From Promethearchaeota archaeon (lineage in GTDB: Archaea; Asgardarchaeota; Lokiarchaeia; Sigyniarchaeales; SOKP01), in NCBI GenBank assembly GCA_048940645.1, contig JBHLOI010000017.1, positions 1 through 63,511 of the forward strand: a stretch of 63,511 nucleotides of DNA. The letters run 5' to 3'. The number at the start of each line of letters is the position of its first letter. The stretch's first letter is position 1. Positions 39,783 to 52,446 of the stretch are shown piece after piece. The notes under the pieces were generated by a model, which was not told the origin of the DNA, made no database searches, and was given only the letters and a program-made list of their open reading frames with translations. Position numbers and translations under genes: made by a program.

Positions 39783-40163
39783 TTAAACCTTTCCGTTCAA
39801 TTTTATCGCAAAAGTTTTGAGAAAAGATAATGCTTTAGGTGGATTTGCTTGAGGCATGGCATATGCTACAAGTATACCTCCTTGAAAAGGAGCGATTATT
39901 ACATGTCCCATCACATCATTGTTAGTTCCAATAATTCCTTCAGGAGCAGTTTCAACAACTGAAAATTCTAAATTGTTAAAGACAAAAGAGCGGGCTCCTT
40001 TAATGGCATTTAATATATTGTTCGTTTGATTGGTTAGATCCCAATTTTCTGTCTGGAAAAGTATAACCCCCGTATCAGACACAACTGCGACTGAAGCAAT
40101 TTTTATATTAGTCTCGAGGGCGGTAATTCCCAATTCATCAATGATCTTTTTTATTTCATCCAT
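39783..40163 (-). CDS. Asgard (Loki-type) profilin
   Basis: I..IIDEL...VAVVSDTGVILFQTENWDL...F.VVE...E..IGTN....GHVIIAPF.GG.LVAY..P.A.P...L..L..FA.KL follows the Loki profilin pattern (QTENW, IGTN, GH). Confidence 0.9.
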   Translation of the reverse strand: MDEIKKIIDELGITALETNIKIASVAVVSDTGVILFQTENWDLTNQTNNILNAIKGARSFVFNNLEFSVVETAPEGIIGTNNDVMGHVIIAPFQGGILVAYAMPQANPPKALSFLKTFAIKLNGKV

Positions 40164-46013: not shown

Positions 46014-46163
46014 TTGCCGATTGATAAAGAATTACAAGAAGAAATCAAGAAAGGGGTTTCTCTCCAAAAGGTTGATGAGGAAGAAATAAGAAAACGAGAA
46101 GAAGAAAAAAAGAAACGCATGGCAGAACTTGAAAAGATCAAAGCAGCCTTAGGAGAAAAATAA
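46014..46163 (+). CDS. Unannotated 49-aa protein with WH2-like actin-binding motif
   Basis: TTG start after purine-rich GGAGATGAGGA; MPIDKELQEEIKKGVSLQKVDEEEIRKREEEKKKRMAELEKIKAALGEK*. Confidence 0.75.
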   Translation: MPIDKELQEEIKKGVSLQKVDEEEIRKREEEKKKRMAELEKIKAALGEK

Positions 46164-48430: not shown

Positions 48431-48526
48431 TTATGATTTAATAAAAAACTAAAAAATATAATTATGTAATACCATAAAAAACATACTAATAATTAATATA
48501 AATTATTTTTTTATAAATTGATTAAT

Positions 48527-49150
48527 ATGAGTCCAATTATTACACATGAAGATGAGCTTGAATTAGCAAGAACAGAAAAAGAGGTAGTGAGTCATATAAA
48601 ACGACTAGCAAAAGCACAAAATGACCTCATAAACTCTCAAAAAAAGTATGCTGAGAATCTTGCTAAAGCAAATCTAGTAAGAGAAATGTTAAATAGATCG
48701 TTTAGAGACGTCATAAAGCAGATGCAAACCTTACTTAGAGAGAAGAAATCAAATGTTCAAGATGAAGAAGTAAATTTATATCAAGATATTATACATAAAA
48801 ACGATGGTTATATCGAAGTAAACAATAAATATATTGATGCAATAAAAAATCTTACATTAAAAAAAGAATATTTTATTGAGAAAAAAAATGAATTCGCGGA
48901 TGCTTTAAGTGATGTAGCCGATAAAAGGAGTGCCGTTATTAAAAAAGCTTTAAGTGTTGAAAAAATGAAGAATAAATTAGTTGAAGGTGAAAAGTTAAAA
49001 AAGTTAGATTCTGAATTCAATGACTATCAAAGAGATTTTGATATAGCTAGGGATGTACTAATAAAGAAAGTTCATCAATTTTTAGAGGTAAGAAACGAGT
49101 TAGATGATTTATGGACGATTTTAAAAGATTCAGTATCTAAATCAAGCTAA
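48527..49150 (+). CDS. All-helical coiled-coil protein, BAR-domain-like
   Basis: About 207 aa, three long amphipathic helices, Lys-rich tip (KKALSVEKMKNK...EKLKKL); BAR call is inference. Confidence 0.6.
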   Translation: MSPIITHEDELELARTEKEVVSHIKRLAKAQNDLINSQKKYAENLAKANLVREMLNRSFRDVIKQMQTLLREKKSNVQDEEVNLYQDIIHKNDGYIEVNNKYIDAIKNLTLKKEYFIEKKNEFADALSDVADKRSAVIKKALSVEKMKNKLVEGEKLKKLDSEFNDYQRDFDIARDVLIKKVHQFLEVRNELDDLWTILKDSVSKSS

Positions 49151-49292: not shown

Positions 49293-49757
49293 ATGGCAGA
49301 AGAATTCGCAAATTTCATGCAAGAAACTAGAAGGGCTCCTCTTGAAGAGAAATTAAACGCATTTGGAGATATAGTTGAAAGGATGATGTCAATGATTCTC
49401 AGAATTCCTGATCTAGTTGATCAGTCTTTATTAACTCTTAACCAAAAAATTTCAACTTTAGAATCCCAAATTAATACATTGAATAATAATATGGCATCAA
49501 TTAAATCAACTGGAGGAAATATAGCCCCTATGATATCAGCCCCCACTGCTCCTAGCAGTATACCTCCTCCACCTGGCGGTCCACCTAGCACTTCGTCTCC
49601 TGGAGGTTCAAGACCTCCTCCTGGCGGTCCTCCCCCACCTCCCGGCGGTCCACCTGGAGGACCTGGAGCTAATCGCCCTGCCAGTCCGATTAGTTTAAGA
49701 GGCGCTATAATGAGTGAACTTAAACAACTATTTAATAAACGCAAGACCCAAGGTTAA
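49293..49757 (+). CDS. Coiled-coil / polyproline protein with C-terminal WH2- or VASP-FAB-like helix
   Basis: Heptads LNQKISTLESQINTLNNNM; IPPPPGGPP, RPPPGGPPPPPGGPPGGPG; terminal LRGAIMSELKQLFNKRK. Confidence 0.8.
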   Translation: MAEEFANFMQETRRAPLEEKLNAFGDIVERMMSMILRIPDLVDQSLLTLNQKISTLESQINTLNNNMASIKSTGGNIAPMISAPTAPSSIPPPPGGPPSTSSPGGSRPPPGGPPPPPGGPPGGPGANRPASPISLRGAIMSELKQLFNKRKTQG

Positions 49758-49921: not shown

Positions 49922-51649
49922 TTGGAGAAATCTAGTAGTAAAGACGCTACAAATAATACAGTTAAAGTTGTTCATGACCTCAAAAGACAAATTTTAGAGA
50001 TACCCTCTCTAATCAGAGTAATGAATAACTATTATTATAAAAAAAATCAAGGACAAAATCAAATTAAACCAATTCTTCGAAAGAAAATTAAAGAAAATAT
50101 AAAGTTTTTAAAAGATAAGAGAGATTTGCTTTATTCAATACCCACTGCTTTGGATACTTTAAGCGATGATCTCATTAGCAGAAAAGATTCATTTAAGTTT
50201 CCTGATAGCATCATTTTATTCGAAGCTTGGATGAATTTAGGCTATAATGCTCTTTATCCTAAACTTGTCTTACATTATAAGTTTCCGGGATTTTTAAAAG
50301 GGGAAAAAATAAGACATTTATTTCAATTTATCTTTTCTACATCTCGTGGTTTTGGGTTTCCTATCTATTTTGGACCCGAATTTTATGGATATATCCTAAC
50401 ATATGGTAAAATTTTAGAACCAATTCTAAAATGGAGTCATACAGTATGCCATAGAGCAAACCAAGCAATTTTCCTAGTAGGTAAAAGATATAATGTAAAA
50501 AGACACCATCCGGGAGAATTTGAATCTATAATAATTTCTGAGTATAAGGATAATATCTATAAAGGTATTGATACGCTCTTACATGGTTATTTTACGAACG
50601 ATCCAAAAAATTTAGGAAAGTTTTCCTCCCTAAAAGAAGTTCTTCAGAATATAACGTTTTCTTACTCAATAGGAGATCACGCTATGAGCATTGAATCAAA
50701 ACCTACTAGCAAAATTTTGAATGTTCATTTAATTACATATGATAAAATAATGGAAAAATATAATGTAGATTTTTACAACTACATCAAAAAACTAATATCT
50801 TTTAAAAAAATGCTGATAAACAAAATTTTGTTCTATAAAAACCAAAAAAATTCCCTTAAAAATCAATTGAGTAGACTAGATAAGCTAAAACTATTTTTAA
50901 ATAGATCTAAAAGATTTAAAGTTTCAGCACTTAATTCTTCTAAAAATATTTTTGAAATAGAGAAAATTAATCTTTATATTCATGTTATGGAAAAAGTTTT
51001 GGAATTGATTTGGACAACCCCTCTCTATACTCATACTTTACATGCTTTAACAGATAAAGAAAAGAAGTTTTTGATTCAAGATAAGAAAATTAAAGAGAAT
51101 TTTGAACAAAAATCTATAAATTCGATATTTTTTTTATGTTTGAAATATTATGAAGAAAAATATAACTTTAATTTTGAAGAAGAAGATATAATTAGAAAAG
51201 TGGATGATTTAAAAGATTCTATGGCAAAAATGTGGTTATATTTCAAAGAAAGCCAATTTAACCTTGCGATAAAAGAATTAAGTGAAATTTCTAAGTTATC
51301 AATCGAAGATCAAAATTATGATTTAAAAGTGAATGAAATCTTAGATAAACTTATACCAATATTTTCAATTTATGAAATATTTAATAGATCTCTGTCCGAA
51401 TCCGTCTACCCTGAGTCTATTCCCCGCACAGAAAGATTAGGTGCATATATAGCAAGTTTTTTAACTTCAAAATATAATTTATTTGGTATTAACTTAATGC
51501 ATCTCTTTAATAGACTAGCCTTTTATAATTGGAGCTATTACATTTTTAAAAATAAATTAAATCGAAAAAAATTATATAACTTCATTTTAAAACTGCCAAT
51601 CTGGAAAAACATTCCCCAAAGTATTAAATTAAAGATTTTAAAAATTTAA
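49922..51649 (+). CDS. Hypothetical protein
   Basis: 575-aa ORF; no family recognised. Confidence 0.75.
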   Translation: MEKSSSKDATNNTVKVVHDLKRQILEIPSLIRVMNNYYYKKNQGQNQIKPILRKKIKENIKFLKDKRDLLYSIPTALDTLSDDLISRKDSFKFPDSIILFEAWMNLGYNALYPKLVLHYKFPGFLKGEKIRHLFQFIFSTSRGFGFPIYFGPEFYGYILTYGKILEPILKWSHTVCHRANQAIFLVGKRYNVKRHHPGEFESIIISEYKDNIYKGIDTLLHGYFTNDPKNLGKFSSLKEVLQNITFSYSIGDHAMSIESKPTSKILNVHLITYDKIMEKYNVDFYNYIKKLISFKKMLINKILFYKNQKNSLKNQLSRLDKLKLFLNRSKRFKVSALNSSKNIFEIEKINLYIHVMEKVLELIWTTPLYTHTLHALTDKEKKFLIQDKKIKENFEQKSINSIFFLCLKYYEEKYNFNFEEEDIIRKVDDLKDSMAKMWLYFKESQFNLAIKELSEISKLSIEDQNYDLKVNEILDKLIPIFSIYEIFNRSLSESVYPESIPRTERLGAYIASFLTSKYNLFGINLMHLFNRLAFYNWSYYIFKNKLNRKKLYNFILKLPIWKNIPQSIKLKILKI

Positions 51650-51664
51650 TTAATTTCTCCAAAT

Positions 51665-52246
51665 TTAAAATTCTAAAAATCCAGGATCATCAAATATATC
51701 TTCTATTTTTTTTTCCTTTTTTATACTACTTTCGTCGTGTTCAGTAAATAATGATTCTTCATCTGTTTTTATCCCTTTTTCCATCTCCAGTGTTTCTAAA
51801 TGAAGCAAAGCATCTTTTTCCATTTTTTTAAATTCTTCAGCTTTTAATTTCCATTTGTTAACATCATCTATATTTACATCTTCTTCATCTGCTAATAATT
51901 CTGCTGCCTTAACTCTACAAAGATCAGATAAAATTGAATAACATAGGACTAATTCTCCCCATTCATTTTCTTTTTTCAACTTTTCAATTCTTCGTTCTAA
52001 TCTTTGCATTTCTTGATCAGCATAATAGATATCAATAAAATCTCCAAAAGCATCAACAGGTTCAGATATAGAATTGACTAATACTTCCTTTGTTAAACCA
52101 CAATAACCACATTTCACTGTTGCGATAGGACCTTTTCTCATGCCTTCAACCTTTACAGATTTTTCACCGCATGAAGGGCATGTAAAAATTTTTGGTACCT
52201 TCTTCACTCTTTTGTATGTTTGTTGCTTTCTTTTTCTTCTACCCAT
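51665..52246 (-). CDS. elf1: Transcription elongation factor Elf1 with helical/acidic C-terminal extension
   Basis: MGRRKRK...VPKIFTCPSCG..SV.V......A.V.CG.CG........SEPVDAF..FID; ATG at 52246. Confidence 0.9.
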   Translation of the reverse strand: MGRRKRKQQTYKRVKKVPKIFTCPSCGEKSVKVEGMRKGPIATVKCGYCGLTKEVLVNSISEPVDAFGDFIDIYYADQEMQRLERRIEKLKKENEWGELVLCYSILSDLCRVKAAELLADEEDVNIDDVNKWKLKAEEFKKMEKDALLHLETLEMEKGIKTDEESLFTEHDESSIKKEKKIEDIFDDPGFLEF

Positions 52247-52446
52247 GGAAAAACACTTCAATTTAAAATTTCTAAATACATTAACTTAATCAATAACTAA
52301 TTAGAAATTAAAACTAAAAAATTTTCGCTTTTTTAATTGTAAGTTAGAGGAAATCGTAAGATTTTTTAGGAATGTTTAATTACACTAATTACTTTTTTTA
52401 ACCGAAAGAAATATAATGATTTTAATATATTTAGTGGATTTTAGGC

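Follow-up and report, generated by a model that had tools for sequence, protein, structure and literature searches.

A phylum-wide family of small Asgard proteins with a coiled-coil head, a proline-rich arm and a conserved C-terminal helix

The window analysed here is a 63,511-nucleotide stretch of DNA from a Promethearchaeota archaeon (contig JBHLOI010000017.1 of assembly GCA_048940645.1), and the gene under study lies on its forward strand at 49293–49757 and encodes a protein of 154 amino acids (aa). An initial annotation, made from the DNA letters alone, had taken this protein for an Ena/VASP- or WASP-like factor with an N-terminal heptad region, a Gly/Pro tract containing GPPPPPG and an actin-binding-like terminal helix. 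The open reading frame (ORF) was found exactly where it had been placed, with an ATG start and 154 codons before the stop, and a search of the host's own genome returned a single copy. The features of the gene are as follows.

49293–49757, + strand: gene of the 154-aa protein, ATG start, stop codon included (ORF list)
49293–49427, + strand: conserved helical head, residues 1–45 (MAEEF..F, FGDI.E..M, IPDL), from invariant columns and AlphaFold2
49428–49508, + strand: predicted heptad coiled-coil stalk, residues 46–72, from AlphaFold2 and the family profile against the PDB
49509–49685, + strand: predicted disordered Pro/Gly-rich arm, residues 73–131, predicted local distance difference test (pLDDT) ~45–55
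49563–49574, + strand: PPPP tract, residues 91–94, read from the sequence
49629–49643, + strand: PPPPP tract, residues 113–117, within GPPPPPG (residues 112–118), read from the sequence
49686–49751, + strand: putative C-terminal basic amphipathic docking helix, residues 132–153, from the AlphaFold2 helix and tail motif counts
49421–49744, − strand: spurious antisense ORF of 107 aa; the CCN/GGN-rich arm read in mirror image, which translates as poly-Gly/Pro

The antisense ORF was considered as a gene and rejected as a mirror artefact of the CCN/GGN-rich stretch.

Architecture and range of the family

An AlphaFold2 model of the protein, run with a 61-sequence alignment, contains helices at residues 2–14 and 17–72 (pLDDT >90), a disordered stretch at 73–131 and a helix at 132–153 (pLDDT ~85). 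The head comprises helices 2–14 and 17–38 and has a conserved Pro39; its invariant columns among Loki-type members are A2, E3, E4, F5, F8, P16, K20, F24, G25, I27, E29, M32, L36 and I38. The stalk belongs to the same long helix (17–72) and follows a regular a/d heptad. When the family profile was compared with the PDB, matches were obtained to trimeric coiled coils (adhesin stalks, Lpp and sigma-1; E 6e-5 to 0.02) and to nothing beyond coiled coils. A fold search with the model returned only generic coiled coils and helices, with Z of at most 6.1 and confined to residues 1–80, and in the model the terminal helix is not packed on the head. The heptad region, the GPPPPPG tract and the terminal helix described in the initial annotation are all present, the last carrying its core motif SLRGAIMSELKQLFNKRK at residues 134–151. 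This helix has a hydrophobic moment of 0.30–0.35, a mean hydrophobicity of 0.21–0.26 and a net charge of +4, six hydrophobic residues share one 140-degree face, and the chain ends in KRKTQG. At the DNA level the Pro/Gly arm is a GC island, with 60–66% GC against ~20–35% in the surrounding sequence, and runs of at least five prolines occur in just 7 of the 9,300 open frames (at least 60 aa) of the 3.8-Mb genome.

More than 199 homologs of ~135–180 aa were found, all annotated as hypothetical and all from Asgard (Promethearchaeota) metagenome-assembled genomes. When the two most conserved peptides were scanned against prokaryotic genomes, one for each species, 117 relatives were recovered; all came from Promethearchaeota, save for bins of unclassified archaea and a single contig labelled as a Nanopelagicaceae bacterium. 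With a wide profile, a match (E up to 1e-5) was present in 223 of 268 Promethearchaeota genomes that were at least 85% complete, covering 26 of 28 families and including genomes of 1.3–1.4 Mb; a few families were sparse or negative (3/21, 6/15 and 0/5 genomes). Odinarchaeia, too, have a recorded member. In these phylum counts the range parallels that of actin, profilin and gelsolin. The ESM Atlas returned unnamed Asgard clusters only, and no description of the family was found in the literature. Judged from these searches, the family is confined to Asgard archaea.

Conservation of the terminal helix across Asgard archaea had been proposed as a check on the initial annotation, and the helix is conserved. 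Among Loki-type members both head and end helix are invariant, the helix residues concerned being P132, S134, L135, R136, G137, A138, I139, E142, L143, K144, L146 and F147, and the architecture and end motif persist in homologs whose heads are only ~30% identical. Across 107 unique tails the motif residues were kept as follows: R136 in 99, I in 88, M in 87, E142 in all 107 (a position at which the extraction pattern admitted only E or D), L in 105, K144 in 103 and F in 94. By this measure of sequence the end helix is the best-conserved part of the family. What follows it is basic in some members (KRKTQG) and strongly acidic in others (KRRTDDDDDD in Lokiarchaeum ossiferum), and acidic ends such as DDDDDD, DDDDED and SGDE are found in many lineages. 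The arm has a median length of 53 residues (range 15–98) and a family-wide composition of 35% P, 19% G, 12% A and 11% S; a run of at least five prolines is present in 127 of 180 members and a Gly-flanked run of at least four in 130 of 180. Odin-type and some other deep members carry Pro/Thr/Ala arms without P5 and keep the end helix. The universal features are therefore the head, the stalk, the proline-rich disordered arm and the end helix, with oligoproline in many lineages, not all. Given the GC island, the rarity of proline runs, the >199 homologs and the invariant end helix, the architecture reflects more than chance, and the gene is confirmed as encoding a real, undescribed small protein in which a flexible proline-rich arm joins the coiled-coil head to a conserved end helix.

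GTPase tails and neighbouring genes

The same module was detected at the C-terminus of small GTPases. By BLASTP, residues 20–152 align with the tail (312–425) of a 426-aa GTPase, P0184, at E 2e-11 and 33% identity, and this tail ends in SLRGAIMGELKELFAKKK, in which the end motif is identical. Domain assignment places P0184 and a second protein, P0207, among Arf/Gtr1_RagA-type GTPases, and the module in such tails is colinear with the free protein: head, heptads, proline-rich arm and an SLRGAIM.ELK.LF.K end helix. The host genome encodes a 415-aa GTPase of its own (C11:135372-136619; Pfam Gtr1_RagA/Arf), the tail of which is the genome's second-best match to a position-specific scoring matrix (PSSM) of the helix, at 10.3 bits; its region 294–353 aligns with the head (hhalign E 0.0024), and it ends in a polybasic KKNKRTKKK with a mean hydrophobicity of 0.045. 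A Ras-like GTPase, P0155, has head and stalk and lacks the helix. On these alignments the 154-aa protein is best explained as a free-standing form of the tail module carried by some Asgard Arf/Rag-like GTPases. This homology names no function, since the tails are themselves uncharacterised.

The genes discussed below, in the window and elsewhere, are as follows.

48518–49150, + strand: 210-aa BAR-like three-helix protein, upstream partner (gene order, AlphaFold2, Foldseek)
51665–52261, − strand: Elf1-type Zn-ribbon protein (also L036:7238-7858)
49922–51649, + strand: 575-aa protein
39783–40163, − strand: profilin
46014–46163, + strand: 49-aa WH2-like microprotein ELQEEIKKGVSLQKV, more WH2-like than the end helix of the 154-aa protein
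L144:1360-2826, − strand (= G138:C1:4726360-4727826): 488-aa repeat ORF, monoisotopic mass 56.414 kDa
L140:1147-3114, − strand (= G000:C64): 655-aa oligoproline GTPase, among the genome's 7 frames with a run of at least five prolines
L139:1058-2443, + strand (= G000:C106): 461-aa protein with APPPPPGGPLPAP

The gene of the BAR-like protein ends ~140 bp before the start of the 154-aa gene, in the same orientation. This arrangement, immediately upstream and in the same direction, recurs in 78 of 80 species loci (the remaining two lack enough flank), and in two further families the BAR-like gene lies just downstream or one gene away, with the order swapped. The model of its product consists of three long helices (pLDDT 91.7), and the best Foldseek matches almost all belong to the BAR superfamily at E ~0.01–0.08: arfaptin (1I4T/1I49), the IRSp53 I-BAR, SNX1/5, Lsp1/Pil1, MIM and F-BARs. 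The other conserved neighbour, in two families, is the Elf1-type Zn-ribbon protein with its long acidic helical extension. The gene of the 575-aa protein, for which Pfam has no match, comes next after the 154-aa gene in 56 of 80 species loci and is absent from the rest. Small neighbours in two distant lineages look Roadblock-like by eye, and a Pfam search with them gave no match.

Two further proteins of the genome carry oligoproline. The 655-aa protein combines a small-GTPase core with a long Pro/Lys/Glu-rich region containing PPPPP and PPPPPP and with a C-terminal coiled coil. The 461-aa protein, of unassigned family, shows an acidic stretch, then APPPPPGGPLPAP, whose oligoproline is likewise flanked by G, and what look like transmembrane segments at its C-terminus.

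Candidate partners of the end helix

The reading that we favour, tentatively and with somewhat less than even confidence, is that the protein serves a GTPase/BAR membrane module as a multivalent adaptor, its end helix docking on a specific protein partner. The head and heptad stalk would assemble two to four chains, a trimer being hinted at. Each chain would project a flexible Pro/Gly-rich arm of ~55 residues, and the 18-residue basic amphipathic helix at its end would dock on a conserved target. The protein would then act as a multivalent adaptor or tether, probably with the upstream BAR-like protein, in a small-GTPase-linked membrane-remodelling module. That the chains oligomerise, that the helix docks and that the protein acts at membranes are all inferences on our part. 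A specific protein partner is preferred to plain lipid because no other part of the protein is as well conserved as the helix and because its polar and hydrophobic residues are both near-invariant, and protein docking fits better than electrostatic lipid binding because the end beyond the helix varies from basic to acidic whilst the helix is fixed.

Several points weigh against this reading. An oligomeric state of the stalk would have weak coiled-coil similarity as its sole basis. The physical values of the helix fall within the range used for lipid-binding helices in Asgard Arfs (PMC11914678). The hhalign alignment of the head with the host's own GTPase has a probability of only 12%, and the neighbours of that GTPase gene are redox enzymes and uninformative. 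Finally, only Loki-type lineages have the BAR-like gene and the 154-aa family is phylum-wide, so that the BAR pairing cannot explain an ancestral function.

The lipid-like values of the helix also bear on a possible but doubtful alternative, in which the end helix would be a membrane-targeting amphipathic helix of the MinD/FtsA kind, the protein a peripheral tether, and the same tail an anchor for GTPases. Moment, hydrophobicity and charge all lie within the Asgard Arf lipid-helix window, and the helix stands at the extreme C-terminus after a flexible linker. The tail-bearing GTPases have a different N-terminal region with no evident Arf-type amphipathic helix by eye, the host GTPase tail ends in a polybasic stretch, and the partner gene is BAR-like. 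Against this, the polar residues E142 (107/107, at the position where the pattern allowed only E or D), K144 (103/107) and R136 (99/107) are kept as strictly as the hydrophobic ones. Lipid anchors normally conserve amphipathic character only, and such strict polar conservation would be unusual for them. The acidic ends would moreover be unfavourable on anionic membranes, and the host GTPase tail, at its mean hydrophobicity of 0.045, is barely hydrophobic.

The terminal helix had been aligned by eye with the F-actin-binding (FAB) segment of VASP in the initial annotation, and this comparison was repeated with scores. Human VASP FAB (sequence from PMC10340426) reaches −1.1 bits under the family tail PSSM, a value attained by only 19 of 1.62 million genome positions, with the caveats that VASP was picked post hoc among many motifs and that the PSSM background is an AT-rich proteome; VASP GAB scores −18.7 bits. 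FAB and the family helix share the pattern [IL]-M-x-E-[LM]-x-x-[LM]-[LF]-A-[KR]-R-[KR], and in one lineage with GGLMGELKSLLAARRKK, 10 of 17 residues are identical to FAB (hand count). By BLOSUM62 the tail of the window's protein scores ~21–27 against FAB (hand count), outside the genome's eight best six-frame segments (27–37). The pattern and the PSSM rank make the likeness suggestive, whereas the BLOSUM62 score is weak.

With the whole 154-aa protein, Pfam at E up to 1 gave nothing above its cut-off and no EVH1/WH1, WH2 or VASP_tetra, and the last 29 or 43 residues gave no match, to WH2 or otherwise, at E up to 10, a search in which HMMER filters may lose very weak matches. The motif LKK[TV] is absent, L-F-x-K-R-K coming after the helix and three residues closer than in WH2. 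The protein has no second helix or G-actin-binding site, no KLRK/LKK motif of the EVH2 type and no acidic end with a conserved Trp, the acidic ends of homologs also being without Trp, and its coiled coil is N-terminal. Membership of Ena/VASP, WASP/WAVE or WH2 is not supported and is rejected, and functional analogy remains a candidate; of the earlier proposal, the eukaryotic-like order of a presumably oligomerising helix, oligoproline and a basic amphipathic end helix has survived. A MIT-interacting (MIM1-like) helix was considered in addition and set aside: the hydrophobic spacing would fit and the charges appear reversed, E standing where the MIM1 consensus has R.

True homology with Ena/VASP or with WAVE/WASH/BRK1, which would make the protein an ancestor-like actin assembly factor, is very improbable. 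Faint coiled-coil hints of this kind were all below threshold: Pfam CCDC53 (a WASH subunit) at E 0.11 and Mito_fiss_reg at E 0.0034, the BRICK1 chain 3p8c_E at E 0.53 in the profile search of the PDB, and Brk1 3pp5_A at Z 5.7 (63 residues), a score that dozens of unrelated coiled coils share. The BRK1 and CCDC53 hints were given no weight, since each depends on one and the same heptad stretch. Sequence and profile searches gave nothing significant in eukaryotic families, all relatives are Asgard, and EVH1, WH2 and a Trp-bearing acidic region are absent; when longer proteins were searched with residues 108–154, none of 5,597 candidates scored, a query too short to be informative.

Analogy without homology is the more serious form of the actin proposal, and we consider it rather unlikely. 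The protein would be a functional analogue of Ena/VASP or of MIM/IRSp53, in which the coiled coil clusters the arms, oligoproline recruits profilin-actin, the end helix binds the filament like FAB, and the BAR-like partner couples curved membrane to Lokiactin growth or bundling. The order of the elements is the same as in eukaryotic factors, and a BAR-like partner with a proline arm and an end helix recalls MIM/ABBA. To this are added the PSSM rank of FAB, the lineage with 10 of 17 identities, and proline runs that are very rare (7 frames) and held against the AT bias. The family's range is like that of actin, profilin and gelsolin, and no machinery for filament nucleation or elongation in Asgard archaea is named in the literature (PMC9433394, PMC13716822). 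The profilin 9 kb upstream, already called in the initial annotation, proved to be a genuine Asgard profilin (E 3e-12 to the Loki profilin structures 5YED/5YEE/5ZZB), and it is missed by the Pfam Profilin model. Some Asgard profilins bind polyproline, at 0.2–0.5 mM (PMC8410842). Loki profilins, in the passages of PMC9433394 and PMC8410842 that cite work on them, are reported not to do so, yet P5 is best kept in Loki-type members. Also opposed to the analogy are the Odin-type and deep members that keep the helix without P5, the missing WH2, LKKT and second G-actin-binding site, the BLOSUM62 score outside the genome's eight best, and the post hoc choice of VASP from many possible motifs.

Published proteomic data offered a further view of the actin proposal. 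A closed genome of the same order (G138; 6,035,313 bp), which we take to be that of L. ossiferum, an assignment consistent with the mass matches below, was used to follow the family gene. Locus tags from a crawling-motility study with a proteome and a Lokiactin co-immunoprecipitation (co-IP) table (bioRxiv 10.1101/2025.11.30.690169; Nature version PMC13716822) were mapped to it by monoisotopic mass, Lokiactin at 42.747 and 2DGel1 at 36.601 matching 42.75 and 36.60, respectively. As anchors, GNAMCCOK_02218 (24.01 kDa) corresponds to the Elf1-like ORF at 2628036 (24.013 kDa) and GNAMCCOK_02268 (53.82 kDa) to the ORF at 2682682 (53.824 kDa), with a spacing of 50 tags against 52 ORFs. The family gene at 2628799, 143 bp downstream of GNAMCCOK_02218, should be GNAMCCOK_02219. 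This protein was quantified in 16 of 16 proteome columns with a mean log2 of 18.47 (Lokiactin 21.69), and it was absent from the part of the Lokiactin co-IP table that was covered, with log2 ratios from +10 to −1.06; the full table has 841 more rows. The proteins enriched there include gelsolins, profilin and a WH2-like repeat protein of 56.41 kDa. The ortholog is expressed and is not among the proteins that co-precipitate with Lokiactin in the rows covered, and the data set does not support actin binding; the absence counts only weakly against it, as end-bound factors or those of low affinity may escape such an experiment. Its Elf1-like neighbour, GNAMCCOK_02218, was modestly enriched (log2 1.36, adjusted p 0.034).

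Three other entries of this data set were looked at. The "ARF GTPase" GNAMCCOK_04696 (38.10 kDa) was considered as a carrier of the tail and rejected, being a 329-aa Arf/Rag-like GTPase without a family-like tail; its C-terminal part looks roadblock-like by eye. The microprotein ELQEEIKKGVSLQKV recurs in ~7 tandem copies in the 488-aa L. ossiferum ORF, the mass of which matches GNAMCCOK_04085 (56.41 kDa), among the proteins most enriched with Lokiactin (log2 4.53, 44 peptides, adjusted p 0.002). Pfam WH2 was negative at E up to 0.01, and WH2 is unmentioned in the text of PMC13716822. The 4.41-kDa GNAMCCOK_03085, with 87% coverage, was also enriched with Lokiactin (log2 2.66, adjusted p 0.0005) and has a proteome mean log2 of 21.7.

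Taken as one candidate partner of the docking helix, actin is rather unlikely and is not favoured. Actin, profilins and gelsolins of eukaryotic type occur in Asgard archaea, and the 154-aa family is equally widespread in the phylum. That this family is the missing Asgard actin-assembly or anchoring factor, an ancestral phylum-wide VASP/MIM-like multivalent protein using oligoproline and end helix, is unlikely; if true, the BAR-like partner and the GTPase fusions would direct Lokiactin growth to membranes and subject it to small GTPases. Were actin the partner, no VASP-like factor would have been known from archaea before this one. The filament nucleation and elongation machinery of Asgard archaea is unnamed in the papers covered, up to Nature 2026 (PMC13716822; also PMC9433394). 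The family is linked to the BAR-like protein through gene order and to Arf/Rag-like GTPases through fusion, and eukaryotes use such ingredients to couple membranes, switches and the cytoskeleton. Whichever partner the helix docks on, its identification would reveal a conserved element of cell organisation specific to Asgard archaea, and the 154-aa protein is small and soluble-looking.

Comparison with known systems

With Ena/VASP the protein shares a coiled coil that would oligomerise, G-flanked oligoproline and a short basic amphipathic helix. It differs in having neither EVH1 nor GAB/WH2 and in an N-terminal coiled coil of left-handed-heptad type, where that of VASP is C-terminal, and homology is not detectable; VASP, at ~380 aa, is also longer. 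WH2 (PF02205) and the WASP/WAVE VCA region resemble it in an amphipathic helix with hydrophobic residues at i, i+1 and i+4 (I139, M140 and L143) after a proline-rich region, and some homologs end, as VCA does, in an acidic run; LKK[TV], the C helix and a Trp in the acidic end are lacking. The element order of MIM (I-BAR, Pro-rich region, C-terminal WH2 or WH2-like motif) is matched in two chains by the BAR-like protein and the 154-aa protein. Unlike MIM/ABBA and IRSp53, the Asgard pair has its elements on two separate genes and an end helix other than WH2, and the BAR likeness of the partner is at the fold level only (E ~0.01–0.05).

FtsZ and MinD/FtsA offer a likeness of a different kind, in that a folded or oligomeric core, a variable disordered linker and a short conserved C-terminal docking helix follow one another. 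There is no homology between the 154-aa protein and the FtsZ linker and C-terminal peptide or the MinD/FtsA helices; the arm is here oligoproline-rich, and the end helix is far more strictly conserved than is usual for membrane-targeting helices of the MinD/FtsA type. The tails of Asgard Arf/Gtr1-RagA-like GTPases (~415–465 aa, annotated as "ADP-ribosylation factor-like protein") differ in being attached to a GTPase domain and an N-terminal extension, both of which the window's protein lacks, and on sequence comparison they are homologous to it over the whole module.

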